In this document: positions 1,170 through 59,286 of the stretch, one piece after another
Layout: each line of letters starts with the position of its first letter
Position numbering within the stretch: the stretch's first letter is position 1
Origin: Actinomycetota bacterium
GTDB taxonomy: Bacteria; Actinomycetota; Acidimicrobiia; Spongiisociales; UBA5794
NCBI GenBank assembly: GCA_013151445.1
Contig: JAADIG010000052.1
Location: forward strand, 2 to 64,001
Length of the DNA: 64,000 nt
Direction: 5' to 3'
The notes under the pieces: generated by a model
Databases searched by the model: none
What the model saw: the letters and a program-made list of their open reading frames with translations, nothing else
What the model was told of the DNA's origin: nothing
Program-made: the position numbers and the translations under genes

Positions 1170-1562
1170 ATGGAGCAAGCCCTACCCCTGCACAAGAGCT
1201 TCGTGGATCTGCTTAGACAAGCATGGATCCAGCGCGACGCGTCCATCGTTGACAGATTCGTGGCTGATGATGTCGTCACGTCTCTCCAATCCGGAACCGA
1301 ACCCTTCATGGACAAAAAGGCGGTCATGCACCGTCTCGGCAACCTGTGGGTAGTCCAACGGGACATCTGGACTGACTGGACCGTCGTTTCTGACACCGCG
1401 GACACCTGCCGAATAATTGGCAGCGCCGGTTACACAAACGCTGCCTACATGACACGGGTGACGTTCGAGGGAACAACCTCGGTAACGTTCAGGGATGGCC
1501 TCGTGAGCCGTGTCAAGGTCGACGTCCAGGCAACCGTCGCACAAGGCGTCGACGCGGGTTAG
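1170..1562 (+). CDS. NTF2/SnoaL-like small protein (hypothetical)
   Basis: 130-aa ORF with the hydrophobic/aromatic pattern typical of the SnoaL-like fold. Preferred over the antisense ORF 1182..1586. Confidence 0.4.
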   Translation: MEQALPLHKSFVDLLRQAWIQRDASIVDRFVADDVVTSLQSGTEPFMDKKAVMHRLGNLWVVQRDIWTDWTVVSDTADTCRIIGSAGYTNAAYMTRVTFEGTTSVTFRDGLVSRVKVDVQATVAQGVDAG

Positions 1563-2143
1563 ATCGTGAGGTCCGCGTGCGTCCATGCCCTGGCAAACGC
1601 ATGCAGTGCCTTCGCCCGATGCGACATGACTGCCTTTTCCGATTCGGTTCGCTCGGCCAACGTTCGGCCATCGACGACGAATACGGGGTCATAGCCGAAC
1701 CCATTCACACCACGGCGTTGCATCGCGATAGTTCCCTCAAGCCGCCCCTCGACGGTCAACTCTATTCCTCCGGGCGCTGCGAACGCGATCGCGGTGACGA
1801 ATCGAGCGCTGCGGTGCTCGACACCCACGAGCTCGTTCAACAGCTTTGAAACGTTGTCCTCATCCGACGCGTCCGGTCCGGCATACCGGGCGCTGTGCAC
1901 ACCGGGCGCGCCCCCGAGTGCATCAACGAACAGGCCGGTGTCATCCCCAATTGCGGGTAGTCCGGTAGCAGCGACCACCGAACGTGCCTTCAGCAACGCG
2001 TTACCCACGAGCGTCGTTTCATACTCGTCCACGTCCGGCCAATCGAGCCCGCGCACAATTTCAACACCGAGTCCGCCGTCGCCGAGGATACGTTCAACCT
2101 CGGTGATTTTGTGCTCGTTCTTGGAGGCAATAACGATTCGCAT
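1559..2143 (-). CDS. rdgB: Non-canonical purine NTP pyrophosphatase RdgB (Ham1 family)
   Basis: MRIVIASKNEHKITEV N-terminus and FGYDPVF motif. Adjacent to rph, the classic rph-rdgB pair. Confidence 0.9.
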   Translation of the reverse strand: MRIVIASKNEHKITEVERILGDGGLGVEIVRGLDWPDVDEYETTLVGNALLKARSVVAATGLPAIGDDTGLFVDALGGAPGVHSARYAGPDASDEDNVSKLLNELVGVEHRSARFVTAIAFAAPGGIELTVEGRLEGTIAMQRRGVNGFGYDPVFVVDGRTLAERTESEKAVMSHRAKALHAFARAWTHADLTI

Positions 2144-2158
2144 AGTGCTATGAATTAT

Positions 2159-2866
2159 TCACGCATCTCGGGCGGCAGCTTGGGCAACAACCAGGTCCTT
2201 GATACCTGCGTGAGCAACGTCAAGCATCGCATCCAGCTCGGCCCGGCTGAACGGATCACCCTCGGCAGTGCCCTGAACCTCAACAAGCTTTCCCGACCCT
2301 GTCATGACGACATTGCAGTCAACATCGACCGCAACATCCTCGACATACTCAAGATCGAGGAGCGCCTCACCCTCGTAGAGACCAACGCTAATCGCGGCGA
2401 TATGATCAGAAATCGGTGACTCCTTGAGCCGCCCCTCGGAGACCCATGCATCGAACGCGTCGGCAAGAGCGATCCACGCACCGGTGATCGATGCGGTTCG
2501 AGTGCCTCCATCAGCCTGGAGGACGTCACAGTCAACCGTTGCAGTGATACCTGTCATCTTTGATAGATCCACCCCGGCACGCAATGATCGTCCGATCAGC
2601 CGTTGGATCTCCTTCGTACGTCCACCGCTGATCGACTTGCGATTGATGCGTGTAGTGCCGGAACCTGGGAGCATCGAATACTCGGCCGTTACCCACCCCT
2701 CGGGAGAGTCGCGCATCCACGGCGGTACCTTGTCCGAGAGCGACACGGTGCACAGCACACGAGTCTTCCCCATCGAGATCAGCACCGACCCGGGGGTCAT
2801 CTCGGTGAACCCTCGGACAATCTCCAAGGTTCGAAGTTCGTCGGCGGTGCGTCCAGTTCTCAACAT
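2159..2866 (-). CDS. rph: Ribonuclease PH
   Basis: Full-length 235 aa with RNase PH motifs (RTGRTADELR, ADGGTRTASITGA). Confidence 0.9.
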   Translation of the reverse strand: MLRTGRTADELRTLEIVRGFTEMTPGSVLISMGKTRVLCTVSLSDKVPPWMRDSPEGWVTAEYSMLPGSGTTRINRKSISGGRTKEIQRLIGRSLRAGVDLSKMTGITATVDCDVLQADGGTRTASITGAWIALADAFDAWVSEGRLKESPISDHIAAISVGLYEGEALLDLEYVEDVAVDVDCNVVMTGSGKLVEVQGTAEGDPFSRAELDAMLDVAHAGIKDLVVAQAAARDA

Positions 2867-9139: not shown

Positions 9140-11305
9140 ATGATGCCGTTTATACGACAGATGCTACGCACCGCGCTCACCGTTACGCTGGCCGCCAGCC
9201 TGCTTGTAGCAATACCAGGCCTTGCGTCCGCGGGTCAGGGTTTTCGGGACGACGATGGGAATATCCACGAGAACTCGATTGAGGCGCTCTCCAACGCGGG
9301 GATCACTCAGGGCTGCGGCACCGAGGAGTTCTGTCCCGACGAGGCGGTAACCCGCGGGCAAATGGCCGCATTCCTCGACCGAGCCCTTTCCCTGCCCCCG
9401 GCGAGCGGTGTCGAGTTCGACGACGACGACGGATCGATCTTCGAGGGATCCATTGAGAGGATCGCGGCCGTCGGGATTACCAAGGGGTGTAACCCGCCGG
9501 CGAACACCAACTTCTGCCCCGATAGTTTCGTAACCCGCGGGCAGATGGCAGCGTTCCTGGTCCGGGCACTCAACCTGACCGACACGGGATCTGCCTCGTT
9601 TGTGGATGACGACGGGTCGATTTTCGAAACAGATATCGAGAAGCTCGCCCAGGCTGGTATCACCCAGGGCTGCAACCCGCCGGCGAACGATCAGTTCTGT
9701 CCCTACTCTCGTGTGACGCGAGCACAGATGGCAACGTTCCTCACCAGAGCCCTCGACCTTCCGACCCAGCCGCCACCCGGATTCACCCTCGGGAACGAGG
9801 ACACGGCCCTCGTAACCCGATACGAGTCACGTCGCGATACCAGCGAGGGTCAGATACCCGATACCTACAACGCGCGGTACTCCCCACGTTCGTTCACCAC
9901 AGGTCTGGACGTCCTGCCCGATCCCGACGACGTCGACCTCGTCAATAGCCCGGGCCGCTACGACGGCTGGGATGTCCTCTCTCCGTCTACTCGCTGGGAG
10001 CACCTCAACCGCGGACCCGACCCGGATTGGTTCCGTTTCACCCTCAGTCGTGATGCCCGTGTCGGTGTCGTGTGGCGGAGCGACGAGACACCACCCGGGT
10101 GGTTATCCGGGTGGACGAAGGGCGGAACAGTCATCATCGACGACCGCATCCACGATGTCTACGAGAAGGACTTCGCGGCGGGTGAAATCAAACTCGGCAG
10201 CGTGGAGGGTCAGAACGGTTGGCGCAGAATGTATCTCGTGCTGCTCGCCGAGACCGATGGCACACCTACACCGACGCCACCGGCCCCCGAGGGTTGGTCC
10301 ACCCCATTGCCGAATCGACCGTGTTCTGCATGGGTACATGATCTCAACACAACCGTCGCCCCGGACGGCGAGTCCTATGTGAACTGGCACCCACAGATCG
10401 ATCCCGTCTACTGGTGTTCCTACGGGCACGATCACGGCTCCGACCCGGCAATCATCCCCGGCAACCCACTTGTCGGGTACGGATACGTAGCCGCCGCGGT
10501 GCCCCAGGTCGAACCTCATGGTGGGTTCAAGGAATTCATCATGGAGTCGCCCGATGGTGACTACTGGCTTAGATTCATCATCCATGCGGGGACAGCCTTC
10601 GAAAGACGAATCTGCGCCCGCTTCCACACGCTCTTCATCATGGTGTACGACAAAGCGGGAAACGAAAAGTTCTCGGTCGGATACAAGAACGACTACGGAA
10701 CAGCCACCGACAGTGACGGCAACGTATTAACACCGACAGATTGTGGATACTCAATGCCAGCGCTCGCCAACGAGGTTTCCGATCGGCAGAAACGCACCAT
10801 CAACGTCGGTGCTGCCAGCGATAACTACGAGCGTTGGGACTCAAGGTTCGAGACTGACGCGGTCCGCAACCTCGGCATGGTCGTGTTTGAGCACGAGTTC
10901 GATGTCATCAACCCGATATCAGCCTGTACGAACCGCACATGCAACGATGTTGTCGTGCGCGACCTTGAGCGGTTCGACGCGACACGAAGACAGATCTTCC
11001 TCGCCAGTTGGCGAGGAGACTTCGAGTTCGATGCCGATCACGCCCTCGGCCAGGGTGAGTATTTCACCGACCCCTTCGCCCAGGGCCTCGTGGACGCCTC
11101 GGCCTCGAACGCCCTGCGCCAATACGTCGAACCCGGTTTCAAGCTCACGATTGCAAAGAACGCGACCGCAAACCGAATCGGCTGTGTCTCGTGGGATCCG
11201 TGGAGCCAGGAATTCATCTGCTACCAAACCGGAGGCTCCGGGAACCGCGAGAATATCCCGTTCCCACCCCGCAAGAACCTCGAGTACGGCATCTGGCGCG
11301 ACTAA
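9140..11305 (+). CDS. Secreted protein, 3 x SLH-like repeats + ~500-aa domain of unknown function
   Basis: Signal peptide and three tandem ~55-aa repeats, each with GC(N)PP..FCP and VTRGQMAAFL.RAL. Divergent from the gene at 8149..8961. Confidence 0.75.
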   Translation: MMPFIRQMLRTALTVTLAASLLVAIPGLASAGQGFRDDDGNIHENSIEALSNAGITQGCGTEEFCPDEAVTRGQMAAFLDRALSLPPASGVEFDDDDGSIFEGSIERIAAVGITKGCNPPANTNFCPDSFVTRGQMAAFLVRALNLTDTGSASFVDDDGSIFETDIEKLAQAGITQGCNPPANDQFCPYSRVTRAQMATFLTRALDLPTQPPPGFTLGNEDTALVTRYESRRDTSEGQIPDTYNARYSPRSFTTGLDVLPDPDDVDLVNSPGRYDGWDVLSPSTRWEHLNRGPDPDWFRFTLSRDARVGVVWRSDETPPGWLSGWTKGGTVIIDDRIHDVYEKDFAAGEIKLGSVEGQNGWRRMYLVLLAETDGTPTPTPPAPEGWSTPLPNRPCSAWVHDLNTTVAPDGESYVNWHPQIDPVYWCSYGHDHGSDPAIIPGNPLVGYGYVAAAVPQVEPHGGFKEFIMESPDGDYWLRFIIHAGTAFERRICARFHTLFIMVYDKAGNEKFSVGYKNDYGTATDSDGNVLTPTDCGYSMPALANEVSDRQKRTINVGAASDNYERWDSRFETDAVRNLGMVVFEHEFDVINPISACTNRTCNDVVVRDLERFDATRRQIFLASWRGDFEFDADHALGQGEYFTDPFAQGLVDASASNALRQYVEPGFKLTIAKNATANRIGCVSWDPWSQEFICYQTGGSGNRENIPFPPRKNLEYGIWRD
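9236..9750 (+). repeat. Three tandem SLH-like repeat modules
   Basis: Repeated motif at both DNA and protein level. The antisense ORF 9307..9675 is its mirror image. Confidence 0.65.
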
Positions 11306-12220: not shown

Positions 12221-13084
12221 CTACGGCTCGGTGCCGGGTGGTGGTTGTGGCAGGGTCGTCCGAGTCACCTGGTCATAACCAAGGTGTTGCTCTCGTGGGC
12301 GTGTGTCCGCCCCGGGGATCCGCGCCAGGAGGTCCGAAAACTCGGGAGCATCCGCATACTGCATCGCATCCAGTGCCGCCTCCGACAGCGCCCCCCTCGA
12401 AGCCAACGTGCGCCGATCCGAGTACGCCGTCCACAACCGGACCCCATGGGCCTGACCGCCAGAGGCCGACGGCAGCTCAACGTATGTGGACCGAGGACTC
12501 GCCAGCACAATCTTTCTCGCAACTCCATTCTCGAATCCCACGACCCGGTATTTGCCGACAATCAGGATGCGCAAACCGACGGTGTCAATGGAACCGATGG
12601 TTTCGGGCACGAACGCCGAGTCCGCCCGCTTGGAAAATGCGACTGCAACAACATCTCCCGAAACCAGGGTTCCGGCATCGGTACCGTCAGCCAAGAGAAT
12701 TTCGACCACCTTGACTGTCAACACTTGAAAGTCGTATGGCCCGTTCACGCCACGACCTTCGGAGTTCATGGAGGCCGGGGGTTCCGGGGTCCGGTACTCT
12801 TCAATGGCGGCCCCTCCAACCGAAACTATCTCGCCGACCATCACCAGCGGCGAACGTTTAACCGCCTGCTCGAAAGTCAGCTGCACCACAGAGGTAGCGT
12901 TGTATGAGCGGGACGGGTCAGAATCTTCGGTGACTGTGGGCGTAGCGAAGCCAACGTTCGCCTCGCCACCTGCAAGAGGCGGCTGAGCCTCGACGGTGAC
13001 TGCCGCACCGCTAGCGGCACATGCAGAAACGGCGAGAGTGACAACCAGGACGACGCAGAGCGTGCCGTGACGCTTCCGCCTCAT
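12221..13084 (-). CDS. Lipoprotein (hypothetical)
   Basis: MRRKRHGTLCVVLVVTLAVSAC, a signal peptide plus lipobox. Confidence 0.6.
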   Translation of the reverse strand: MRRKRHGTLCVVLVVTLAVSACAASGAAVTVEAQPPLAGGEANVGFATPTVTEDSDPSRSYNATSVVQLTFEQAVKRSPLVMVGEIVSVGGAAIEEYRTPEPPASMNSEGRGVNGPYDFQVLTVKVVEILLADGTDAGTLVSGDVVAVAFSKRADSAFVPETIGSIDTVGLRILIVGKYRVVGFENGVARKIVLASPRSTYVELPSASGGQAHGVRLWTAYSDRRTLASRGALSEAALDAMQYADAPEFSDLLARIPGADTRPREQHLGYDQVTRTTLPQPPPGTEP

Positions 13085-13449
13085 GTTGAGCATTGCTCGT
13101 AGCTCCTTTCAATCCACCACTCGTACAGGCGTCGGTTGCCGAACCGCGCGGGACCGGACTCGGCGGCCGCCGACATCACCCACAGACACCATCGTGTGTC
13201 GACTCCAACTGTTTTGACGGACTAACCCGGTTCCGTGGTTCCCGTGAACGTGTTCAAGTTTCCGGCGGCCCCGGCGACGCAACGGCCGGTTGGCTCCTAC
13301 CGGCCGATCGGCGCTGGCGGACAACCTCTTTACGACAGTGATCTCGCGGCCGAATTCCTGACCCGCCGCTGGGTCAGTCGGTTTCGCGAGGAGATATCCG
13401 AGACGTATGTAGAACCCTGCTGCGGGACGTTGTGTTCGTAATAACAGAG

Positions 13450-13904
13450 TCACATCCGCTCGAGACCGGTATTCATACCCCACGTTTCGAGCGCTCCAAC
13501 GAGGGCATCCGCGATGCCCGAACCGCGCAGCTCCGTGCGACCCACATGCCGGACGTCTCGTCCTCGCGAACATACGCACCGGCCATGGCCTCGACTGTTC
13601 CGTTGGCCTCGGCGACGAAGACGACCCGCTCTCCCCCGGCCGATGCGGTGGTCGCTCGCTCGGCCCACGGGTCGTCACCATAGGTTGGTGCGATATCCAG
13701 AGTCGTGGCGAACGCCGCGGAATCCTCGGCCAATCCCCGCAGACGGATTGCCCGCAGGGTTGCACCGTCACCGTCCCATATCCGCCGCACGGAGAGTTGC
13801 GTCGTTATCTCGCCACTGTATCGAAACCGTCTCCGAAGGACAGGAACGGCCTCTGCACCACAAGGCGCATGTTTCCTAAACTTTGGTAGGGTTGAAAGCG
13901 ACAC
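13450..13904 (-). pseudogene. GNAT family N-acetyltransferase, apparent frameshift
   Basis: The N-terminal two-thirds are in ORF 13473..13904. GNAT motif A (RGSGIADALVGALETWG) is in a different frame (ORF 13450..13668). The frames switch near 13560-13600. Confidence 0.4.
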
Positions 13905-13915
13905 ATTTGCGAGAC

Positions 13916-15001
13916 ATGGAAGTGGGACACATGCAACCTCGACGATTTGTTCTTCTCGGCCTGGCCGTGGTCACGGCGCTGTCCGTAGCCGTACCGGCAA
14001 CCGCAACCGATGCGTTCACCGATGTGCCGGACACCAACGTATTCTCGGCTGATATTCAATGGTTGGAGGATGCCGGCATCACCCAGGGATGCAACCCGCC
14101 AGCCAACGACCGCTTCTGCCCAACGGAGAACGTCACCCGCGAGCAAATGGCCGCATTTCTCGTCCGCTCACTCGGCCTCACCGACAACGGCGGCGGAAAC
14201 ACCTTCACCGACGACGATGGCTCCGTGTTCGAGAACGACATCGCCAAACTCGCCGCCGCAGGAATCACCCAGGGATGCAACCCACCGACCAACGACCGCT
14301 TCTGCCCAACAGAGAACGTCACCCGCGAGCAAATGGCCGCATTCCTCCATCGCTCCCTTGATCCGGCACCAAACCAGGTGCAGGATCTCATCGTCACCCT
14401 GAGCGGAGGCAGCAATGAGATAGACGTCTCGTGGGAGCCAAACCCCGAAGCGGACATTGCCAGCTACAACGTGTGGTTCAGCGAACTGCCGGGTGGAGCG
14501 AAGGCAATCGTCCCCGAGCCGTACACGTTCGGTCCTGCGACGAGGACGTCGGGACGTTGGTACATCATCGACTGGCCACGGGCGCAAACGTCGGGAGAGA
14601 CCTGTTATCAGGTCAGCGCCGTCGATGCCTCTGGTCAAGAAAGCCCCCGATCGGTAGAGGAGTGTTTTGACTCCACACCTGGCGCACCAACTCAGGTCAT
14701 GGGCGTGACCGTCGGGTTGGGCGGCGGCAGCGGAGAAGTGTTTGTGTCGTGGGACCCGAATCCTGAGGGCGACATTGCTTCCTACAACGCCTATTTCAGC
14801 GAGTTTCCCGGGGGACCGTACACGTACGTCCCGGAACCGTACTTCTTCGGACCGGACACACTCATGTCGGGTCGGGTCTACTTCATCGATCAGCCACGGG
14901 AAGACACAGTCGGCAAGACGTGTTATATCATCACCGCCGTCGACCTGAATGAAAAAGAGGGACCTGCCTCGGTGGAAGGATGCTTCGACCCTGACGCGTA
15001 G
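13916..15001 (+). CDS. Secreted protein, 2 x SLH-like repeats + 2 x FN3-like repeats
   Basis: Signal peptide (start at 13916 or 13931). Two SLH-like repeats nearly identical at DNA level, then two ~100-aa Ig/FN3-like modules. Confidence 0.75.
   Translation: MEVGHMQPRRFVLLGLAVVTALSVAVPATATDAFTDVPDTNVFSADIQWLEDAGITQGCNPPANDRFCPTENVTREQMAAFLVRSLGLTDNGGGNTFTDDDGSVFENDIAKLAAAGITQGCNPPTNDRFCPTENVTREQMAAFLHRSLDPAPNQVQDLIVTLSGGSNEIDVSWEPNPEADIASYNVWFSELPGGAKAIVPEPYTFGPATRTSGRWYIIDWPRAQTSGETCYQVSAVDASGQESPRSVEECFDSTPGAPTQVMGVTVGLGGGSGEVFVSWDPNPEGDIASYNAYFSEFPGGPYTYVPEPYFFGPDTLMSGRVYFIDQPREDTVGKTCYIITAVDLNEKEGPASVEGCFDPDA
14012..14333 (+). repeat. Two tandem SLH-like repeat modules (near-identical at DNA level)
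   Basis: 14081-14160 versus 14262-14345 are almost identical (atcacccagggatgcaaccc...cgcgagcaaatggccgcattc). Confidence 0.7.
14371..14998 (+). repeat. Intragenic tandem duplication (~310 nt x 2) encoding FN3-like modules
   Basis: Protein repeats ...VSWEPNPEADIASYNVWFSELPGG... and ...VSWDPNPEGDIASYNAYFSEFPGG... Confidence 0.65.
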
Positions 15002-15042
15002 ACCACGGCATCCAGTAACCGCACAACGCATTGGCCACTCCC

Positions 15043-15219
15043 ATGATCGACATCTTCCTACCGTCCACCGACAGCGGTGTGCTGTTTCAGCTTGTTCTCT
15101 GGACGGCCCTGACCGGGATCGCCGTGCGCCGTACCCGACAGAACAAGGACTACCGAATTCTTGCGATCGGTGTGAGTCTGCTGGTGTACTCGTTGATGGG
15201 CGTCCGTGCCCTCCACTGA
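15043..15219 (+). CDS. Small two-TM membrane protein, paralog of 15803..15985
   Basis: LVLWTALTGIAVRRTRQNKDYRILAIGVSLLVYSLMGVRALH aligns with the second copy. Confidence 0.45.
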   Translation: MIDIFLPSTDSGVLFQLVLWTALTGIAVRRTRQNKDYRILAIGVSLLVYSLMGVRALH

Positions 15220-15292: not shown

Positions 15293-15802
15293 ATGAACAC
15301 TGCTGACCTCCTCAAGTTCCGTGCCGACAAGGACCGTTTCTTCAAGCTCTCCGAGCAGTCCCCCTTACGTCATGAGACCCAGCACGACTTCAATGGGCTT
15401 TCATACTTCGAGCCCAACGAAGATCTGGTCTTTGATGTCACGCTTGATGCCGTGGAGCCGACTGAAGTCACCATCGCAACCACCGCAGGCGAGGAGCGGA
15501 CATACTCGCGTGTGGCGACCGCAACCGTGTCGGTCGATGGAGAAGACACAGCCGTCGCGTTGTACTCGACCGGCCATGAAGGCCTCTTCTTACCCTTCCG
15601 GGATGCGACGTCCGGATCCGAAACCTACGGCGCCGGTAGATATATCGACGTTCATCCCCATGGTGACGGTACTGCCGTTATCGACTTCAACTATGCGTAC
15701 GCACCCTTTTGCGCATACAACGACAACTATTCCTGTGCCCTGCCACCGCATGAGAACTGGCTGTCAGTACCAATCCGAGCGGGCGAACGGAGCCCCGAGT
15801 AA
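15293..15802 (+). CDS. DUF1684 family protein
   Basis: FRADKDRFFK, ETYGAGRY and DFNYAYAPFCAYNDNYSCALPPHENWL are signature motifs of DUF1684. Confidence 0.75.
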   Translation: MNTADLLKFRADKDRFFKLSEQSPLRHETQHDFNGLSYFEPNEDLVFDVTLDAVEPTEVTIATTAGEERTYSRVATATVSVDGEDTAVALYSTGHEGLFLPFRDATSGSETYGAGRYIDVHPHGDGTAVIDFNYAYAPFCAYNDNYSCALPPHENWLSVPIRAGERSPE

Positions 15803-15985
15803 GTGAACGACTCCCTGGTATTGCTGGCTTCGACCAGTGGCAGCGCACCCGCACAACTCGTTGCCTGGGCAATTATCTCGCTCGTCGGCATCGGGATCGT
15901 GCGCAACAACAAGGACCTCCGGCTCCTCGTGATCGGTGTTAGTTTCTCCGCGTTCGGTGTGCTCCTCATCCGTGCGATCCACTAG
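15803..15985 (+). CDS. Small two-TM membrane protein, paralog of 15043..15219
   Basis: LVAWAIISLVGIGIVRNNKDLRLLVIGVSFSAFGVLLIRAIH. Starts immediately after the DUF1684 stop. Confidence 0.45.
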   Translation: MNDSLVLLASTSGSAPAQLVAWAIISLVGIGIVRNNKDLRLLVIGVSFSAFGVLLIRAIH

Positions 15986-16008: not shown

Positions 16009-16995
16009 ATGTTCGATTTCGCTCGCTCCCCGGTTCCGGTTCGCGACAACCTCAAGCGTGCCTACCGCAACATCTGGGCCCATCTCGCCCAGCCCGGACC
16101 CGTACTCGACGCCTCCCACCGAAAAGTTCTTCTCGACGCCGCCCGCACTGGGCGCTCCGATGAGACACCCCCCACCGGTATCGCCCCACCGGCGCTCGAG
16201 CTACTCGCAACCACCTTGTACACAAACCCCGCCGCTGTCTCCGAGACGACAGTGCGCGACGCCGCAGACGAGGCCAGTGATGCCGCGGTGGCAGAAACGG
16301 TGGGCCTGGTGGCGATGCTCAGCGCAGTGGACGGTGCCCATCGGGTGTTGGGCGTCGAACTTGAAGCGCTCCCCAACCCCGCCCCGGGGTCACCTACCGG
16401 CCGAATCGCGCAAGGACTCAAACGACGGCGTACCCATATACCGATGCCCTCGGGTGCGATTCCCCGCGCTCTCGATCTGGTTCCCGAGGTCGCAACCGTA
16501 TGGCGCAACTCGTTCGGAGCGCAATACATGACCGAGAGCGAAATGGCGCTCCACGACTTCCGGCGGGTACCGGGACTCGATCGCGCTCAAATGGAACTCG
16601 TCTCCTCGCGCACTTCTCTGATTAACGAATGTTTCTACTGAACCATCAGCCATGTGCGGATGCTCCGTGAGAGCGCCATCAGCTTCGGATACGACCTCGA
16701 CCTCGCCACCGTCGGTGACCCGGCAATCCCCACCGCGATACCTGGCGGCAACGCCTTGCTCGACCTTGTTGATGTTGCCCTCGGCAAGTCGGACAAACCG
16801 CTTCTCGATGCGCAGCAGGCGATCATCAACACCCTGGGGCCCGAAGCCCTCGTCGACGCAGCCGCGGTCCTCGGCAACTTCGAAATGATGAACCGTGTCG
16901 CCGAGGGCACCGGGATCCCGATACCGCAGCAATCCATCGATCGCGAAAGCGAAATCGTTGCGGCGCTCGGGCTACTCGACCTCATCAAGGGTTAA
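16009..16995 (+). CDS. AhpD/carboxymuconolactone-decarboxylase (CMD) family protein with in-frame TGA (candidate selenocysteine, CxxU)
   Basis: ORFs 16009..16641 and 16654..16995 are in the same frame, separated only by TGA at 16639-16641. The sequence LINECFY-[TGA]-TISH fits the CMD motif N-G-C-x-Y-C-x-x-x-H, with TGA at the second Cys position. If the TGA is a true stop, the gene is 16009..16641. Confidence 0.5.
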
Positions 16996-17001
16996 CGCGA
17001 A

Positions 17002-17041
17002 CGGAGCCATCCTCTCCCTCGTCGGTGACAGGATGGCTCCG
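17002..17041. terminator. Hairpin between convergent genes
   Basis: 12-bp inverted repeat cggagccatcct / aggatggctccg with a 16-nt loop. Confidence 0.4.
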
Positions 17042-17062
17042 CTCGGATCGGGGCGAGTTGGC

Positions 17063-28391: not shown

Positions 28392-28522
28392 CCGGACGAT
28401 CCCCGGCTGCTCGCTTCAGGTAAGAATCCATTTGGCCGATACTGATGCCAGGCCACGGATCGGTAACTCCCCGCCGGATCCGGGCTGCACACGAGACCGC
28501 CGACGCAGGACATCACGACCCC

Positions 28523-31048
28523 ATGACTACACGCCTCCGGACGTGGAGCGCCGCAGCCGCTTTCCTCACGTTCGCCGCGCTAGTGCCGCTCACTGCCACT
28601 CCGGCAACGGCCGCTACCGACACGACCTACCTTGACGAGGGGTACGAGTCGACTCCCGCAACATGGAGCGCGGGCTGGTTTGATGCCGACATCGGTGCCC
28701 GCAACCGTATTACCTCGATCGCGGACGGTATCGACGGACAGGGCATCAAGGTAACCATTCCTCGCGATGAGCATTTCGGGTCCGCAATGCGGTGGGAGTT
28801 CGAGGCGAACGGAAAGACCGAACCGGACGAGCTCTACTACAGGTACTGGCTCCGATTCCCCATCGGTTTCGCAAACTACGGCCAGGGCAAACTTCCCGGA
28901 CCGTCGGGCCTTTACTCAAGCTCCGGCCGGAACAAGATCAAACCAAGCGACGCCAACCCGGGTTGGTCGGCGCGAATGATGTTCACATCACCCGACCCGG
29001 GACGAACCGCAACTAACACCCAGATCGGCTACTACGTGTACCACCGTGGGCAGCCCGGGTCGTCCGGAGAGACCGAGCCATGGCAGGACTCCCCTGGGGT
29101 TCTTGAGCACGGTCAGTGGTACTGCATCGAAGGCCGGGTGGCGATGAACACACCCGGTGTTGCAAACGGTGTTCTTGAAGGGTGGGTTGACGAGAAACTT
29201 GCCTACTACGAGAACGATTTCACGTTCCGAGGCGCATCGGATGCAGGCATCAACGTCCGCGAATTCTGGTTTGACACTTACTACGGCGGCGATGCGACCG
29301 CACCCGGTTCACTCTCATTCGACTTCGACGAACTAGTGCTCTCGGACCAACGCGTCGGGTGTGGCGAACGAGGATCCGGGTTCCGCGACACGAGTGGCAA
29401 CGTTCATGAGTCCAACGTCGACAAGCTGGCATTCGCCGGTATCACGAAGGGCTGTAACCCGCCGAACAATTCACGCTTCTGCCCCGATGACAACGTGAGT
29501 CGGGGCCAAATGGCGGCGTTCCTCGACCGTGCGTTAGACCTGGCGCCCACGACCACGGATTTCTTCGATGATGATGCCGGTTCGGTGTTCGAGGCGAACA
29601 TCAACCGTCTCGCCGCGTCCGGAATCACTCTCGGATGCGGGGTGAGGACATACTGCCCGAATGATCGTGTCACTCGTGGTCAGATGGCCGCCTTCCTCAC
29701 AAGGGGGCTTTCCCTCCCGACCGGAGGGTCCGACCTGTTTGTCGACGACAACGGGTCTCCGTTCGAGAACGCTATCGACAGAATGGCATCGGCCGGTATC
29801 ACGGCCGGGTGCAATCCCCCGGCCAATGACCGTTTCTGTCCGTATAACAACGTCACCCGTGGACAAATGGCGTCGTTCCTGAGTCGGGCGCTTAAGCTCC
29901 CGACCCCGCCGCCGCCGCCGCCCGGGTACGTTGCTCCGACGATCCCAGACGGTTACGACGCGGTTGTACCTCTTGGGTGGTCGATCCAGGATGTGATCGA
30001 ACAACAGCCCGCAGGAGCGAAGATTCTGGTGCGTGCCGGCACCTACGAACGCCAGGAGATCCGTCCCAAGGCCGGCCAGACGATCGTCGGAGAACCGGGA
30101 ACCAAGCTCGATGGGTTGTGGGCCTACAGCTATGCGTTCACGGACATCAACAACCCGGTAGATGGAGTGACAATCAGCGGATTCGAGGTGACGCGCTACA
30201 ACTCCGTGGCAGGGACGGGTGCGATTCACGGTGCCGGCAACAACTGGACGGTGTCGAACTGCGTCGTGCACGACAACAAATACAACGGTGTCACCGTGTC
30301 CGACGGAGGCACCATCACCGGATGCAGAATCTATGACCACAACTACGAGGCGATCATTCTCACCAATGTGAAGAACGTCACCATCTCGAACAATGAGATC
30401 GACAACAACGGTGACCCTTCCAATTATCAGGCGGGCGTCGATGCGAAGTACCAGGCCGGTATCAAGCTCGTCAACACCGCCAATGTGGTGATTTCGGGGA
30501 ACAACATCCGCGACAACGCCGGTTACGGCATCTGGGGATACACCGACAACATCAATACCGTGTATTCGAACAACACGATCACCAATAACTGGCGGGGTGG
30601 CATCAACCACGAGCTGTCCTACAGCGTGTCGATAGCAGACAACGTTATCAAGAGCAACGGTGTTGCGCCGACATCACCGAAGCCGGACAACCTCTACGAC
30701 GCCGGCATTGTTGTACGAGGACCCGATGCCACGATCACCGGGAACACACTCGACGGGAACCACAACGGCATCGGCATCATCGGCTACGACCTCGACGGGC
30801 AGACCGGTCGTTACGGGTCGCTCAAGGCGTCCGGAGCGCTTGTGAGCAACAACACCATCACCAACTCGGGACAAACCGGGGTCGTCACCAATGGTGCGAA
30901 CATTGCAACCGGCGTGTTTACCGACAACCGCTACTTCTATCCGAATGTCTCCTCCTACTGGTTCCGTGACGGCACCGGTGGTGGACGTACATGGTCTCAG
31001 TGGCAGACCAGCGGCCAGGATCCGAACGGTACGTTCACGATCAACTAA
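28523..31048 (+). CDS. Secreted enzyme: lectin/lyase-like N-domain + 3 x SLH-like repeats + right-handed beta-helix (pectate-lyase-fold) domain
   Basis: Signal peptide MTTRLRTWSAAAAFLTFAALVPLTATPATA. Three SLH-like repeats at 29381-29900. PbH1-type repeats (NNWTVSNCVVHDNKYNGVTV...ISNNEIDNNGD...ISGNNIRDNAGYGIWG). Confidence 0.8.
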   Translation: MTTRLRTWSAAAAFLTFAALVPLTATPATAATDTTYLDEGYESTPATWSAGWFDADIGARNRITSIADGIDGQGIKVTIPRDEHFGSAMRWEFEANGKTEPDELYYRYWLRFPIGFANYGQGKLPGPSGLYSSSGRNKIKPSDANPGWSARMMFTSPDPGRTATNTQIGYYVYHRGQPGSSGETEPWQDSPGVLEHGQWYCIEGRVAMNTPGVANGVLEGWVDEKLAYYENDFTFRGASDAGINVREFWFDTYYGGDATAPGSLSFDFDELVLSDQRVGCGERGSGFRDTSGNVHESNVDKLAFAGITKGCNPPNNSRFCPDDNVSRGQMAAFLDRALDLAPTTTDFFDDDAGSVFEANINRLAASGITLGCGVRTYCPNDRVTRGQMAAFLTRGLSLPTGGSDLFVDDNGSPFENAIDRMASAGITAGCNPPANDRFCPYNNVTRGQMASFLSRALKLPTPPPPPPGYVAPTIPDGYDAVVPLGWSIQDVIEQQPAGAKILVRAGTYERQEIRPKAGQTIVGEPGTKLDGLWAYSYAFTDINNPVDGVTISGFEVTRYNSVAGTGAIHGAGNNWTVSNCVVHDNKYNGVTVSDGGTITGCRIYDHNYEAIILTNVKNVTISNNEIDNNGDPSNYQAGVDAKYQAGIKLVNTANVVISGNNIRDNAGYGIWGYTDNINTVYSNNTITNNWRGGINHELSYSVSIADNVIKSNGVAPTSPKPDNLYDAGIVVRGPDATITGNTLDGNHNGIGIIGYDLDGQTGRYGSLKASGALVSNNTITNSGQTGVVTNGANIATGVFTDNRYFYPNVSSYWFRDGTGGGRTWSQWQTSGQDPNGTFTIN
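29381..29900 (+). repeat. Three tandem SLH-like repeat modules
   Basis: FRDTSGNVHESNVDKLAFAGITKGCNPPNNSRFCPDDNVSRGQMAAFLDRAL and two further copies. Confidence 0.65.
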
Positions 31049-31822: not shown

Positions 31823-31829
31823 TTCGGTG

Positions 31830-32183
31830 TGGAGGTGGGGGGAGTCGAACCCCCGTCCTATGAGGTTTTAGCGCCGGCATCTCCGAGCGCAGCCAACAGC
31901 GAGCATTTCGGAAACATGGGACCGCCGTCGGCAAAGTTTCCCTCGTTCCTAGTCGGAATTAATCTTGAGCTCTCAGTCCCGACCCCTGAGAGCAGCATCC
32001 CGTATTGCGTTACCCGGGACCGGCGAGACGGGAACCCTCCGGGCGGATAGACCGCTTAGTTAGGCGGCCAGTGCCATGTTTTCATCGGCACGTATTTGTT
32101 TACCGGCTTTTAACGAGGACTCCGGTGTACCTCGGCTCGCTTCCGGACACTTCAACCCTCACAGTCGAAACCATGTCACCCCC
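31830..32183 (-). ncRNA. ssrA: tmRNA (SsrA)
   Basis: 5' GGGGGUGACAUGGUUUCGAC... and 3' ...GGACGGGGGUUCGACUCCCCCCACCUCCA tRNA-like ends. An internal tag ORF is present. smpB is adjacent. Confidence 0.8.
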
Positions 32184-35993: not shown

Positions 35994-37125
35994 TCATTCG
36001 GCTCCCTCCGAATCCGAGGTCTCGTGTTGCTCTCTGCGCCACTGCAAATACCCCTCGACGAAGGCGTCAATGTCCCCATCGAGAACGCCCTGCACGTTGC
36101 CGACCTCAACATTGGTCCGGAGATCTTTCACCATCTGATAGGGCTGCATGACATACGAACGAATCTGCCGACCCCACCCAGCTTCGGACTTGTCACCACG
36201 CACGGCGTCGATTTCCGCGATTTGAAGTTGGCGAGAATGCTCAGCCAGGCGAGAGGCAAGGATCTGCATTGCACGATTCTTGTTCTGAAGCTGCGACCGC
36301 TCGTTCTGGCAGGCGACAACGATCCCGGTAGGCAGATGCGTGATCCGGACCGCAGAATCCGAGGTGTTGACATGCTGCCCCCCGGCCCCCTGCGAGCGAA
36401 ATGTGTCGATCCGAAGATCGTCCTGGTTGATCTCGATCTCATTCGCCCCGATTTCAGGAACCACATCGACACCCGCAAAGCTTGTGTGTCGTCGAGCCTG
36501 GGAGTCGAACGGTGAGATGCGTACCAACCGATGGGTTCCGCGCTCGCTCTCGAAGATGCCATACGCATGGTCACCGCTGATCGTTACCGTCGCCGACTTG
36601 ATCCCCGCCTCATCGCCCGCCTGAATCTCGTCGATAACAAACTGCAGGGGGCTGCGCTCCAGGTAGCGCACATACATTCGCAGCAGAATCTCCGCCCAGT
36701 CCTGAGCATCGACTCCACCAGCGCCAGCGTGCACGCTCAGGATGGCAGTTCGGTCGTCGTACTCGCCGAAATACAGTGTCTCTCTTTCGAGCTCCGCAAC
36801 CGTCACTCCAAGCGTTGCGAGCTCGGCAACCAGTTCGGCCTCGGAGTCGGTGTCACCCTCTTCGATCGCGAGTTCGAGCAGCGTCTCGGTATCGTCCAGA
36901 GTTTCGGCGAGACCGCCGACCCGCTCGATGATGCCCTCGAACCGAGAGAGCCTTCGAGTGACGGTGCGGGCGCGCTGGGGGTCTTCCCACAGATCCGGCT
37001 GTGCTGCGATCTCCCGCAACGTTTCGAGCTCAACTTCCTTGCCCGGGATGTCAAAGGAACCTCCGGGCATCGTCAAGACGGGCACGCAGTTCGTTGATCT
37101 GGGCATGGGGATCAGAAACATTCAT
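35994..37125 (-). CDS. prfB: Peptide chain release factor 2, with programmed +1 frameshift
   Basis: Frame 0 reads MNVSDPHAQINELRARLDDARRFL and ends at the minus-strand motif GGAGG-TTC-CTT-TGA-C (37051-37056). The +1 frame continues DIPGKEVELETL...SPFDSQARRHTSFAGV...GGQHVNT. Confidence 0.85.
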
Positions 37126-41189: not shown

Positions 41190-43150
41190 AACTGTCCCAA
41201 ACTCTCACGAGCCGCATCGCGGAACGCTCGCGTCTGGCTACTGAGGGTGAACCGTTTCGATGCGAAACCCTTCAGGGTCTCGCGGCCGAGCTCCGTGTTG
41301 CGGCTCCCGAGAATCTTGATGACCTGAATTGCGACTTCCGGACGTAGACGTTCCTTGGCAAGCTCATCAGTAAGCAACTGGTCAAGGTCGTCCGCCTCGT
41401 TTGACCGCAGGAGGGATGCTCCCGTCTGACGAACCCGCTCGTTTTCGTCACCGAGGCTACGAATCAGGATCGGAGCCGCGTTCTGGCGCATGAGTCTCAC
41501 CAGGCTACGCAGCACCTCGACGCGGACACGGTACTCCTCGTGGGATAACAGGCGCCGCAGACCTGGGACAGCAGCGTCGCGGTCCGTCTTCCCGAGGACA
41601 ATCGCGAGGTTGCGAATCACGTACCAGGGTTGATGGTTCAAGTAGTCGTCGAGTACACGTGGGTTGCGGTTTGCGGACGCCGCGAGCAACTCCGTGATGG
41701 CGCGGCGCACCTGGCCGTCTTCTTCCATGGCAAGGTGCTGGACAAGGGGGTCAACGGCCGCGATACCAAAGTCAGCGAACAGGTCGAGTGCACCCTGATC
41801 CGGGTTGGACCCACCACTCACCTCGATCACCGTACGAACGGTTTCTGGCGTCAAGATTCGGGCAACACCCTCGTGGACAATGCCGGTTCGGTCGTGGGAG
41901 TACGACGGGTCCGAAAGAACTGCCGCGACAAAAACCCGGGCGCTCGAGAGATCGGAGGCACGAAGCAGACGCACGACCCGCCCACCCCAGACACGGACGA
42001 CTCTGTAGAACCGATCATCGCGGTACTCGCATTCGAGCAGCGCCCGCAGAGTCGCCCGCGCAAGTACGTCGTAGTCGATGGGAACCTGCATCTCGTCACG
42101 CAACGCAACAAGGGTGTCTCCCATCTCCTGTTGAGAAACATCCGTCACGACCGCGGATACGCGGGCCGCGACAGCCATGCGTTTGGCTTCGACATCTCGC
42201 GAAGATTCCAGGCCCTCGAGCAGATCGGCCGGCGATGCAGATGAGTCAAACGAAGCCAGCTCGGCGTATTCCAGGAGAAGTTTGCGACCTCGCTCACTCA
42301 GGTCGGGGAGGAATGCAGACAATTCGGCACCGGTGAACTGGTCGAGGAACACTTGATGCCGTTCGTCTTTGAGCCGTTCCAGAGACCGCTCCATAACCTC
42401 AAGTTGCACGTTGTGGGGAAGATAGAAGAAGGACTCGATGAACGTACGAAACCCCTTCCATACATCAACCTCTCCCTGGCGGAGCGTCGCAATCATTGCC
42501 TTGGGGCGCGCCGCCAACGGCCATGCCGTTGTGTGGAGTTCTTCGATCCCACCCATGAACTCGTCGGCAGGATCCGCCTCGCCTGCGAGTACGACTGTGG
42601 CAATGTCGACGGGGTCTTCACCACGTTGCGCGGCGGCCGCAGCCGCGATCGTCATGTTTGCGTAGTCGCCTTCTTCGTCGTCCCCATTTTCCTCATCGAG
42701 CTCACCCCCGCCCTCGACAAACGAAAGCAGGCCCCGCTCGAAAACCTCGACCCCACCCAGACCCAGCGCACGCACCACCGCATGGGCGCCCCCTTCTGTG
42801 CGTACCTCGTCATCACTGGTGGCGATAACAGCAAAGAATTCGATCAGGGCCTGGGCCGAGATCGATGCGTTGAAACGAAGAAACTCGATGTCATGCACGA
42901 ACAATTCGCGAGCAAGACGTTCGGCACCCTCGCGAGTCTCCACTTCGTCGCCGGAATCGTCGAGAAAGATCCCCGGACCGACACTAACTGTGACCGGAGA
43001 TTCGAGATCGCGCAACACGTCGAGTGCACGCGTGAATGCCGGTTGACTCCCGGGGTCTGGGTACAACGAGAAGGTCGTCCACGCCGTCCCGACCGCATCG
43101 AGAACGGCCTTGAGCTCACCCGCGGATGATTCCGGCTCTACGGCCCACAT
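41186..43150 (-). CDS. HEAT/PBS-lyase repeat protein (hypothetical)
   Basis: 654 aa with an acidic patch and C-terminal HEAT-like repeats (…VIRNLAIVLGKTDRDAAVPGLRRLLSHEEYRVRVEVLRSL…). Overlaps HD-GYP start by 4 nt. Confidence 0.6.
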   Translation of the reverse strand: MWAVEPESSAGELKAVLDAVGTAWTTFSLYPDPGSQPAFTRALDVLRDLESPVTVSVGPGIFLDDSGDEVETREGAERLARELFVHDIEFLRFNASISAQALIEFFAVIATSDDEVRTEGGAHAVVRALGLGGVEVFERGLLSFVEGGGELDEENGDDEEGDYANMTIAAAAAAQRGEDPVDIATVVLAGEADPADEFMGGIEELHTTAWPLAARPKAMIATLRQGEVDVWKGFRTFIESFFYLPHNVQLEVMERSLERLKDERHQVFLDQFTGAELSAFLPDLSERGRKLLLEYAELASFDSSASPADLLEGLESSRDVEAKRMAVAARVSAVVTDVSQQEMGDTLVALRDEMQVPIDYDVLARATLRALLECEYRDDRFYRVVRVWGGRVVRLLRASDLSSARVFVAAVLSDPSYSHDRTGIVHEGVARILTPETVRTVIEVSGGSNPDQGALDLFADFGIAAVDPLVQHLAMEEDGQVRRAITELLAASANRNPRVLDDYLNHQPWYVIRNLAIVLGKTDRDAAVPGLRRLLSHEEYRVRVEVLRSLVRLMRQNAAPILIRSLGDENERVRQTGASLLRSNEADDLDQLLTDELAKERLRPEVAIQVIKILGSRNTELGRETLKGFASKRFTLSSQTRAFRDAARESLGQL

Positions 43151-45219: not shown

Positions 45220-47097
45220 GTGACCTTTGACGTCGCAGCAACACGCGAGAAGAACAGACAACGACGCCTCGCACGACTTCTCGTCGTTCTTGCGCCATTG
45301 GCAGCATGGGTTTGGACCCGGCACATCATGCAGCGCAACCCGATCAGTCCCGGTTTCCCCAATCTGGGGCCGGACGCCATTCTCTGGGTCCCCGGACTCG
45401 GGATCGTTCTGGTGCTCGCCCTGGTATTGATTCTTCCGATGAAGGGCAACAGCAAATCGCCGCACACGATCTACCTGCCGGAACAGATCGATGTCAGCTT
45501 TTCTGATGTCAAGGGTCTGGGCAACGTGAGCCGCGAGGTCCAACACACACTTGAGGTTTTCCTCAACCACAAACGCTTCCGCGAAGAGATGGGGGGAAAT
45601 CCTCGCCGCGGTGTGCTTTTCGAGGGCCCTCCCGGGACGGGCAAAACCCACGTCGCCAAGGCGCTCGCGGCGGAGGCTGGCGTGCCATTTCTCTATGTGT
45701 CATCGACCGCGTTTCAGTCCATGTGGTACGGCGCCACGGCACGCAAGATTCGCAGTTACTTCCGCGATCTCCGCAAGATTGCCCGCGAGCACGGTGGTGC
45801 AATCGGATTCATTGAAGAGATCGATGCCATTGCCCTCAAGCGGGGTGCCATGTCAGGTTTCACACCACGGACAGAATCCGCCGGTTCAGTGGTCAACCGC
45901 AACGCCATGTCATCGGGGACGGGTGGCGTGGTCAACGAGCTTCTGATTCAAATGCAGTCGTTTGATGAGCCAACACGGCGCATCAGATTCAAGAACTGGT
46001 TCATTCGCCTGGCGAACGGCTACCTGCCAGCCCACCGTCAGATCAAGACCGCAGTACCGGGCTTTGCGAACGTTCTCTTGATCGGGGCAACCAACCGTGC
46101 CGATGCGCTCGATCCGGCGCTACTGCGACCCGGACGTTTTGATCGGATCCTTCATTTCGGACTCCCCAACCAGGTGGACCGCATGGAACTCGTCGAGTAC
46201 TTCATGGCTTCGCGATCACACGTTGCCGGTCTCGCCGCACCGAATCGCATCAAAGCAACCGCTGCCCGCACGATGGGCTACAGCCCGGCATCGCTTGAGA
46301 GGCTCTTCGACGAGGCACTCCTCGTCGCGTTGCGCGATGGTCGCAAGGAATTCACGGAGAATGATCTCCATCAGGCCCAAATGGAAGTCGAGATCGGTCT
46401 TCCCAACCCAACGGTGTACACCCCCGAGGATCGCGAAACCGTAGCAACACATGAGGCGGGGCATGCCGCGGTCGCGTACCTTGTTGGCAAGAATCGCCGT
46501 CTTGAGGTGCTCTCGATCGTCAAACGCAAGGACAGCCTGGGACTTTTGAGCCATCGAGACGTCGACGAACGCCACGGCAATACACATTCAGAAATGGTCG
46601 CCAGCCTGCAAATATCTCTTGGCGGCATGGTGGCTGAAGAAGAATTCTTCCACGAGTCCGGTACCGGTCCATCGGGAGATCTCAAGGCAGCAACCACGAC
46701 TGCGTGCATGATGGTCGGGGTCTACGGACTCGGCGATTCTCTCGCTTCCTTCCTCGCCGTTCCGGACTCCCCGCTCGCCTCCTCCCTCGTCGGGCGGGTA
46801 CTCGACAACCCGGGCGCAAAGGCCGAAGTCGAGACGATCCTGGCATCCGCCAAGACGCAGACATCGGATCTCATCCGCGACCACCGCTACCTTGTCGAGG
46901 CACTGCGCGACGCCTTGCTGGAGCGTGAGGAGCTGATCGGTGACGAAATCCTTGAAGTCCTCAGACTCGCCGAGACCCAGGCCCTGAAGTCGGGAAGGGT
47001 CGTCGTGCAGTTATCGGACGACGGAGCCGACATCGTCGAACCTGCCAAGGACATCAACCTGTTCAAGGCGCAAGCTCCGCGAGAGCAACCGAACTAG
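45220..47097 (+). CDS. FtsH-like AAA+/M41 zinc metalloprotease paralog
   Basis: SD AAGGAAGG before a GTG start. Two TMs without a periplasmic domain. Walker A GPPGTGKT, second-region-of-homology LLRPGRFDR and the M41 motif HEAGHA. Confidence 0.8.
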   Translation: MTFDVAATREKNRQRRLARLLVVLAPLAAWVWTRHIMQRNPISPGFPNLGPDAILWVPGLGIVLVLALVLILPMKGNSKSPHTIYLPEQIDVSFSDVKGLGNVSREVQHTLEVFLNHKRFREEMGGNPRRGVLFEGPPGTGKTHVAKALAAEAGVPFLYVSSTAFQSMWYGATARKIRSYFRDLRKIAREHGGAIGFIEEIDAIALKRGAMSGFTPRTESAGSVVNRNAMSSGTGGVVNELLIQMQSFDEPTRRIRFKNWFIRLANGYLPAHRQIKTAVPGFANVLLIGATNRADALDPALLRPGRFDRILHFGLPNQVDRMELVEYFMASRSHVAGLAAPNRIKATAARTMGYSPASLERLFDEALLVALRDGRKEFTENDLHQAQMEVEIGLPNPTVYTPEDRETVATHEAGHAAVAYLVGKNRRLEVLSIVKRKDSLGLLSHRDVDERHGNTHSEMVASLQISLGGMVAEEEFFHESGTGPSGDLKAATTTACMMVGVYGLGDSLASFLAVPDSPLASSLVGRVLDNPGAKAEVETILASAKTQTSDLIRDHRYLVEALRDALLEREELIGDEILEVLRLAETQALKSGRVVVQLSDDGADIVEPAKDINLFKAQAPREQPN

Positions 47098-49488: not shown

Positions 49489-49953
49489 CTAGGAGACGGC
49501 TTCCGTATCGACGTTGTCGGGGTTGTCGTTGAGATCCGACCCGAAAACCAGATCGCGATATGCGGCGAACTTCGGGAGAAGGATAATTCCGGAGGCTATG
49601 ACCAGGACAGCGTTCTCCCCGAGACGCGAGAGTTCAAACCGGCGAGCTGCGAACGCAATTATCTGGTCGGTGACCGCGAGCGCAACAACGTTGACTCCGA
49701 AGAACTTTGCTGTCTCTCGCAGTGACCCGGTGGCGTCATCGGCGTCGAACGTCCACTTTCGGTTGAGGATATATGCAAGCGCAGTACCGATAGCGAACGC
49801 GGCAACATTTGCGGGTCGCAGGTCCATACCGACGGTGCGAAGGACATTGAACACCAGGAAATAGAACAGCGTGTTGCCCACACCAATGATGCCCATTTTG
49901 ACGACCTGCCCCATCGCCTTCTTACTCACGAACGACGCCAGGTAACGTTTCAT
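49489..49953 (-). CDS. GtrA family membrane protein
   Basis: Four-TM GtrA pattern (…GVGNTLFYFLVFNVL…). Confidence 0.75.
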   Translation of the reverse strand: MKRYLASFVSKKAMGQVVKMGIIGVGNTLFYFLVFNVLRTVGMDLRPANVAAFAIGTALAYILNRKWTFDADDATGSLRETAKFFGVNVVALAVTDQIIAFAARRFELSRLGENAVLVIASGIILLPKFAAYRDLVFGSDLNDNPDNVDTEAVS

Positions 49954-59283: not shown

Positions 59284-59286
59284 ACG

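Follow-up and report, generated by a model that had tools for sequence, protein, structure and literature searches.

Introduction

A survey of the Sargasso Sea selenoproteome reported a new family, "hypothetical protein 1", in which a CXXU motif is conserved and a SECIS element was predicted (Zhang, Fomenko & Gladyshev 2005; PMC1088965), and a 2026 AEM review has traced to it the 'AhpD-related protein' family, NF041238, which the review keeps apart from TIGR01926 'AhpD-like' and PF02627 'CMD-like' (PMC13188914). The family has a dedicated model in the NCBI pipeline, and the name of that model, 'AhpD_rel_CFYUT', comes from the motif C-F-Y-U-T; no biochemically characterised member was found in the literature on the family. 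Two other groups from marine metagenomes, AhpD-like 1 (COG2128) and AhpD-like 2/CMD (PF02627), also carry CxxU in an AhpD/CMD domain, are abundant in marine bacteria, and are routinely cut at the UGA by gene callers (Zhang & Gladyshev 2008; PMC2398784). In AhpD of M. tuberculosis, the exposed Cys133 is the nucleophile that attacks Cys61 of AhpC to give a mixed disulfide, and Cys130 is partly buried (PMC6626918). The proton relay consists of E118/C130/H132/C133/H137 in this enzyme and of E36/C48/Y50/C51/H55 in P. aeruginosa PA0269 (PMC3141380).

The present study examined one locus in a 64-kb stretch of DNA (the window, by which we mean the whole stretch that was analysed), for which a first-pass annotation made from the letters alone had proposed a CxxU selenoprotein of the AhpD/CMD superfamily. 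That proposal is upheld by a match to NF041238 above its cutoff, by a TGA at the same column in 61 of 61 homologous loci, by homologs with Cys at this column, and by the alignment of CxxC motifs from the PDB to it. The premise behind it, that AhpD-like and CMD proteins are recognised bacterial selenoprotein families, agrees with the listing of NF041238 as such in the 2026 review (PMC13188914). We conclude, with a probability of roughly 0.88, that 16009-16995 is a single 328-residue AhpD-related NF041238 selenoprotein gene whose UGA is read as selenocysteine.

Results

Gene model and family membership

Two listed open reading frames, 16009..16641 and 16654..16995, lie in one common frame and are split only by a TGA at 16639-16641, a layout described in the first-pass annotation and reproduced here from the sequence. 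The frame opens on the + strand with ATG at 16009, meets the in-frame TGA in the context SLINECFY-TGA-TISHV, and continues past it for 117 further codons to a TAA at 16993-16995. The ATG at 16009 is supported as the start because the N-terminal MFDF is common to the homologs in an alignment of eight sequences. The predicted gene and its recoded codon are:

16009..16995, + strand: complete selenoprotein gene (predicted), NF041238 family; 328 codons including Sec211, with TAA at 16993-16995
16639..16641, + strand: in-frame UGA predicted to encode Sec as residue 211, the second redox residue of the CxxU in C-F-Y-U

Profile searches were run on the protein with Sec written as Cys. The NCBIfam model NF041238 matched at 213.4 bits (E 5e-63; curated equivalog cutoff 175) over nearly its full length, residues 11-322 of 328 corresponding to profile positions 1-352 of 357, and the family signature C-F-Y-U-T is present as NECFY-TGA-TISH, the same motif being found at 61 homologous loci. 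The gene is a genuine member of a selenoprotein family that is already known and curated. Pfam CMD (PF02627) matched at 28.2 bits (gathering score 23) over residues 182-222, on both sides of the TGA. The model for true AhpD, the AhpC-reducing adaptor (TIGR00777), reached 16.2 bits against a cutoff of 191.95, TIGR01926 reached 27 bits against 82, and neither in the window nor at the homolog loci does an ahpC or peroxiredoxin gene adjoin the selenoprotein gene. Because both models remain far below their cutoffs and no ahpC is adjacent, the protein, judged by these scores and by its gene neighbourhood, is not an AhpD ortholog and is best described as an AhpD-type CxxC redox protein.

Conservation of the UGA and of the downstream coding sequence

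DNA was compared at 11 metagenomic loci and at 50 loci from named MAGs; a scan of relatives with a single N-terminal sequence had returned none, and a second contig scan with an alignment returned the 50. The loci span at least six phyla or classes; the MAGs belong to Acidimicrobiia, Binatia, Myxococcota/"Deltaproteobacteria", Alphaproteobacteria (including Ca. Fonsibacter), Gammaproteobacteria (including Halieaceae and Pseudomonadales), and Spirochaetales, and one of them, BMS9Abin12, contains two TGA-containing paralogs (L013 and L015). At every one of the 61 loci, down to 30 % identity, the column holds TGA and never TAA, TAG, or a sense codon, within the motif N-x-C-[FA]-[YF]-U-[TVL]-x-x-H. 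In the window and the 11 metagenomic loci the downstream frame is open for 114-126 codons and its protein is conserved (for example, GNFEMMNRVAE-GIPIP), with the exception of L006, in which the frame ends at the contig edge; the 50 MAG loci were screened by a pattern that demanded about 10 sense codons past the TGA. Against six relatives, dN/dS was 0.11-0.39 downstream of the TGA and 0.13-0.29 upstream of it, and by this measure both halves are under the same purifying selection.

These comparisons bear directly on the reading in which the TGA arose from TGC or TGT by nonsense mutation or by a sequencing or assembly error, leaving a pseudogene or an artefact. TGA differs from either codon by one base and the family does have Cys forms, but the same stop is present in the independent, 99 %-identical P0001, the TGA persists at all of the loci across the full range of identity, and purifying selection downstream of it equals that upstream. 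The comparative data effectively refute a damaged or misread Cys codon, to which we assign next to no chance of being correct. Because P0001, which is from an independent assembly, ends at the same position, a local sequencing error is excluded, and on the strength of the alignments the TGA is neither such an error nor a product of chance.

Public gene calls break the gene at this codon. Searching 5.8 billion proteins yielded 66 homologs, all of 184-260 aa and covering at most the N-terminal 64 % of the query, and all 66 of these N-terminal matches stop at the TGA column. The 117-aa C-terminal query gave 553 matches among 1.84 billion cluster representatives, and among the best 150 of the 553, six are full-length and read through the column with a sense codon; roughly 140 of the same 150, a figure estimated from listed lengths and match positions and not from a tally of rows, appear to be C-terminal fragments of ~100-170 aa that begin with the Met of M-L-R or just past it. 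The same mis-annotation, a split at the UGA, would on our reading affect essentially every public copy of the family, and the appropriate correction in the window is to merge 16009..16641 and 16654..16995 into one selenoprotein gene.

The Cys/Sec column and the active site

The first-pass annotation had assigned the TGA to the second Cys of the AhpD/CMD CxxC motif, and homologs and structures alike place it there. Four full-length homologs (P0071, P0140, P0211, and P0216) read C-F-Y-C and so confirm the TGA column in the alignment with Cys homologs, as does the fragment P0181, and the family profile aligns to the same column the second CxxC Cys of AhpD-like proteins in the PDB (6k40, NRCVYCAVSH; 2pfx, INKCFYCLVAH; and 2oyo). 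Ser occupies the column in P0109 and P0183. Among the sampled sequences the family is overwhelmingly Sec-containing, and the Cys and Ser forms are rare. The surrounding segment and its relay codons are:

16594..16653, + strand: catalytic helix-turn-helix segment with the AhpD-type proton relay, assigned from the alignment and the relay spacing
16594-16596, + strand: relay codon E196
16630-16632, + strand: relay codon C208
16636-16638, + strand: relay codon Y210
16639-16641, + strand: relay codon U211 (predicted)
16651-16653, + strand: relay codon H215

Residues E196, C208, F209, Y210, position 211, and H215 are invariant in the eight-sequence alignment, and the spacing of the relay, E-x11-C-x-[H/Y]-C-x3-H, is identical in the window protein, M. 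tuberculosis AhpD, and PA0269. One detail of the earlier description has to be changed: it had called the TGA position that of the resolving Cys, and in M. tuberculosis AhpD the second Cys, Cys133, is the attacking nucleophile (PMC6626918). Sec211 is accordingly assigned to the attacking position because its counterpart Cys133 is exposed and attacks AhpC Cys61.

The conserved motif also helps to judge whether the TGA is a true stop, in which case the locus would encode a 210-aa N-terminal protein and a separate protein of ~110 aa restarted at GTG 16654 or ATG 16657. Every database protein is called in this manner, and nearly all homologs have a start codon, the Met of M-L-R, 18 nt past the TGA. 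Such an arrangement would, however, cut through the catalytic motif: the codon for H215 comes after the TGA but before any possible restart and so would be left untranslated, although the codons of T/V-x-x-H215 are conserved at the amino-acid level. All 61 loci, moreover, have TGA here, with neither TAA nor TAG as the stop, homologs with Cys or Ser consist of one fused chain, and AF2 models such a fused homolog as a single compact fold (pTM 0.92). We regard two separate products as extremely unlikely, and retain the single recoded gene.

A SECIS-like hairpin downstream of the UGA

Comparative alignment and the local fold identified the following candidate element within the coding sequence:

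16658..16677, + strand: SECIS-like hairpin GGAUGCUC-CGUGA-GAGCGCC; 5' arm 16658-16665 (A16660 bulged or mismatched), loop 16666-16670 (CGUGA), 3' arm 16671-16677

Its stem begins 16 nt past the UGA, its 5-nt loop has G at the second position, and its local energy is -8.1 kcal/mol. In an ungapped alignment of 57 distinct sequences, which extended from the UGA to +54, the core AUGCUC-CGUGN-GAGC is nearly invariant, and 89 % of the cells of the 7-pair helix can pair, compared with 23-47 % when the partners are slid by 1-3 columns. The covariation score was reached by none of 500 shuffles, with covariation located at two basal pairs, of which 22:38 occurs as A-U (21 sequences), C-G (12), and G-C (1). 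The hairpin is short, its four core pairs are invariant and so give no evidence of covariation, and a conserved peptide, M-L-R-x-S, is encoded across it. Synonymous codon choice is frozen as well: Leu is encoded by CTC in 57/57 sequences, as opposed to 40 % of Leu codons in the rest of these genes, and Ser by AGY in 56/57, as opposed to 34 %. A small control points in the same direction: of three Cys-form genes, two no longer have the GCUC/GAGC core and one keeps it.

A different hairpin, 16655-16669, had been put forward in the first-pass annotation as part of a possible SECIS. It is present in the sequence, with 6 pairs (two of them G-U), a triloop, and an energy of -4.7 kcal/mol; as a SECIS it was rejected as the weaker candidate, since 59.8 % of its cells pair, under the shuffle mean of 61.5 %, and it is mutually exclusive with 16658-16677, which is the conserved and covarying hairpin. 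The same annotation had recommended folding the region past the TGA, and the outcome was divided: single-sequence folding was no better than shuffles (z = +1.55 and +0.44) and showed neither hairpin, and the comparative analysis recovered the hairpin at 16658-16677. Rfam at its gathering thresholds returned no match to a SECIS family, as expected for a database in which bacterial SECIS elements are poorly represented. From its position and pattern of conservation, the 16658-16677 hairpin fits a bacterial SECIS.

Selenocysteine machinery and UGA usage

ARAGORN and Rfam found no tRNA-Sec in the 64-kb window, where they returned only a tmRNA at 31827-32183, and none of the 24 ORFs of >=300 aa within the window was identified as selA, selB, or selD, in agreement with what had been noted from the letters alone. 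The search of ~350 kb of homolog flanks likewise found no selA, selB, selD, or tRNA-Sec, and no tRNA-Sec was found in 56 homolog loci. RF2 (prfB) is encoded in the window and many of its genes and long ORFs end in TGA, which together rule out a genome-wide reassignment of UGA; UGA is a normal stop in this genome, and its read-through at 16639-16641 must therefore be site-specific. In Actinomarinales, another order of Acidimicrobiia, selA/B/C/D are present in all 84 complete genomes (preprint; bioRxiv 10.64898/2026.04.03.716425). By implication from the gene itself, the Acidimicrobiia-like source organism would use selenocysteine.

Site-specific read-through might instead proceed without Sec, through a near-cognate Cys-tRNA or Trp-tRNA or through Cys carried on tRNA-Sec, in which case the hairpin would act only as a read-through stimulator; this presumes a lineage with a reduced selenium supply or reduced Sec machinery. 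It would suit the finding that no Sec machinery was seen in the 64 kb of the window, and Cys does work at the position in some homologs. Curation, however, places the family among selenoproteins, with a Sec/Cys pair and a SECIS, and the hairpin has the hallmarks of a bSECIS, namely a small G-containing loop and a fixed distance from the UGA, kept across phyla that use Sec. RF2 is present, so that unassisted read-through would be inefficient, and relatives within Acidimicrobiia have complete selABCD (bioRxiv 10.64898/2026.04.03.716425). Insertion of an amino acid other than Sec is, in our assessment, very unlikely, and decoding of the UGA as selenocysteine is preferred.

Architecture of a Cys homolog

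A structural model was produced with AF2 for the Cys homolog P0071, which is 37 % identical to the window protein, from a 119-row alignment of homolog fragments. The model (pLDDT 90.8, pTM 0.92) is all-helical and forms one compact fold, as in AhpD, and helices H193-206 and H210-227 carry the relay region. Structure comparison of the P0071 model gave the following (score, then size of the match):

human Sestrin2 (5cuf_A): 17.0; 229 (2.9 A)
2pfx: 14.5; 155
Bmp8 debrominase (6ohi): 14.5; 160
2gmy: 14.3; 140
M. tuberculosis AhpD (1gu9): 11.9; 132

Agreement between the model and Sestrin2 was weak in Foldseek (TM 0.46-0.49), and an hhalign profile comparison of the N-terminal with the C-terminal half gave no significant internal repeat. 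The homolog model is best read as two AhpD-like subdomains in tandem, of which only the C-terminal one would keep the redox site.

Proposed decoding and mechanism

The attacking position is the usual site of Sec in selenoenzymes. We propose that SelB and Sec-tRNA(Sec), recruited by the mRNA hairpin at 16658-16677 that lies within the coding sequence 16 nt past the UGA, would decode UGA 16639-16641 as selenocysteine in this organism. By analogy with M. tuberculosis AhpD, the selenolate of Sec211, in the place of Cys133, may then attack an oxidised substrate; candidates are the disulfide or sulfenate of a peroxiredoxin, a hydroperoxide, and other electrophiles. Cys208 would resolve the adduct to form an intramolecular selenenylsulfide, which a cellular thiol reductant could recycle. 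For the family as a whole, AhpD-like chemistry of this kind is likewise proposed by analogy.

Genomic context and other candidates

The window has the character of ordinary chromosome with ~60 % GC and carries, among others, rph-rdgB, arcA, pfk, an NMT1/THI5-type ABC transporter, an F420-dependent LLM oxidoreductase, mmsA, ftsE, prfB, secA, the tmRNA, an FtsH-like protease, fpg, and three SLH-domain proteins. The features that flank the selenoprotein gene are:

15293..15985, + strand: conserved neighbours on the upstream side, DUF1684 (15293-15802) and then a putative membrane protein of 60 aa (15803-15985)
17003..17040, no strand assigned: 11-bp perfect inverted repeat after the TAA, arms 17003-17013 and 17030-17040, between convergent genes

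The DUF1684 assignment comes from PF07920 (E 2e-44), and the order of DUF1684, a 58-aa ORF, and the TGA-containing gene recurs in three of the metagenomic loci (L001, L002, and L011), which we report as context only. On the downstream side, the segment 16993-17062 folds with an MFE of -34.5 kcal/mol (z = -3.5), and 0/200 shuffles fold as well. A simple terminator scan left the 17003-17040 repeat uncalled because a T-run is absent, and the repeat is likely a transcript-end hairpin that lacks a U-tract.

Same-frame ORF pairs split by one TGA were also inspected throughout the window and yielded no second selenoprotein candidate. The pair at 41549-43129 (+) is an antisense artefact of a HEAT-repeat gene and that at 46216-47010 (-) an antisense artefact of the FtsH-like gene; at 1559-2866 (-) rph precedes rdgB, at 12221-13771 (-) a junk ORF precedes a lipoprotein gene, and the last part of 58588-60171 (+) is fpg, with a start codon of its own.

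Discussion

Since the 2005 survey had already described this family together with its CxxU motif and SECIS, what this study adds is a corrected gene model and a precise location for the predicted SECIS. Of modest interest beyond this is the biochemical function of a widespread, almost always Sec-containing two-domain relative of AhpD.

Among known systems, the protein was compared with eukaryotic Sestrin2 (5cuf, 5dj4). The likeness is architectural only, was obtained through the model of a 37 %-identical homolog, and is not evidence of membership; sequence identity is 11 %, and a relationship at the level of sequence is undetectable. The redox motif of Sestrin2 sits in the N-terminal subdomain. 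In the NF041238 protein, unlike Sestrin2, the motif is placed in the C-terminal subdomain.

It was also compared with M. tuberculosis AhpD (Rv2429; 1knc/1gu9) and the AhpD-like 'peroxidase-related' proteins, for which the comparison set comprised COG2128/TIGR01926 and PDB entries 2pfx, 2oyo, 2prr, 6k40, 2gmy, and 2o4d (PA0269). Relative to these, the window protein would have Sec in place of the nucleophilic Cys, and its chain is twice as long, with what the homolog model suggests is an extra, degenerate N-terminal AhpD-like subdomain. The AhpD-like 1 and 2 selenoproteins of marine metagenomes share the CxxU and form separate, shorter families of ~150-190 aa (PMC2398784). With NF041238 itself the correspondence is complete in the full-length match, the C-F-Y-U-T signature, the single predicted Sec, the CxxU, and the SECIS-like stem-loop directly after the UGA. 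It differs in nothing substantive, and the window contributes another member of this family, from an Acidimicrobiia-like genome of ~60 % GC.

Sec, Cys and Ser forms of the family

In the public protein databases, the in-frame UGA splits essentially every gene call of the selenoprotein family (NF041238) to which the Sec-AhpD gene belongs: all 66 N-terminal protein matches to the selenoprotein were fragments, as were, by rough estimate, 140 of the best 150 among 553 cluster-representative matches to its C-terminal 117 aa. Full-length forms bearing a sense codon at the Sec column were rare, comprising four with Cys and two with Ser, and the family is therefore nearly always Sec-containing. The metagenome-assembled genome of Acidimicrobiia bacterium BMS9Abin12 (GCA_036985855.1) holds two paralogs of the gene (loci L013 and L015), which share 69% and 59% identity, respectively, with the protein encoded in the window, and both of which have TGA at the Sec column.

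Among the Cys forms whose DNA was compared, the locus L063 (protein P0140, codon TGC) keeps an intact hairpin, CUGCUC-CGGGC-GAGCGC, at the positions equivalent to the SECIS-like element, and this hairpin could be a fossil SECIS left by a recent Sec-to-Cys conversion; the hairpin has been lost from the other two, L062 and L064.

Gene neighborhood

Two small ORFs lie upstream of the selenoprotein gene and an inverted repeat lies downstream:

15031-15219, +, small ORF, putative two-helix membrane protein (60-62 aa range)
15803-15985, +, small ORF, putative two-helix membrane protein (60-62 aa range)
17003-17013 / 17030-17040, perfect 11-bp inverted repeat directly past the TAA of the selenoprotein gene, with convergent genes on either side

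The small ORFs bracket a DUF1684 gene (15293-15802), and their products are paralogs (36% identity, E 1e-12) for which neither Pfam nor NCBIfam returned a family match. The order DUF1684, small ORF, Sec-AhpD gene was found again in three Acidimicrobiia loci (L001, L002, and L011). The region around the inverted repeat (16993-17062) folds with an MFE of -34.5 kcal/mol (z = -3.5), and the consensus terminator scan made no call there because the repeat is devoid of a U-tract.

Other genes in the window

The remaining features are as follows:

35994-37121, -, prfB (RF2)
49950-52151, -, large ORF, 733 aa
54863-57754, -, large ORF, 963 aa
41186-43150, -, large ORF, 654 aa, HEAT repeats only
53479-54870, DUF5719 ORF neighboring the large ORFs
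9140-11305, +, SLH-domain protein
13883-15001, +, SLH-domain protein
28445-31048, +, SLH-domain protein

The prfB gene appears to be encoded in one uninterrupted 375-codon reading frame, and a programmed +1 frameshift site was not evident from the ORF layout. None of the three large ORFs had a match in NCBIfam, nor did the 733- and 963-aa ORFs in Pfam. S-layer homology (SLH) domains occur in three large secreted or cell-surface proteins, one of which also carries an fn3-like repeat whose translation shows an internal duplication.
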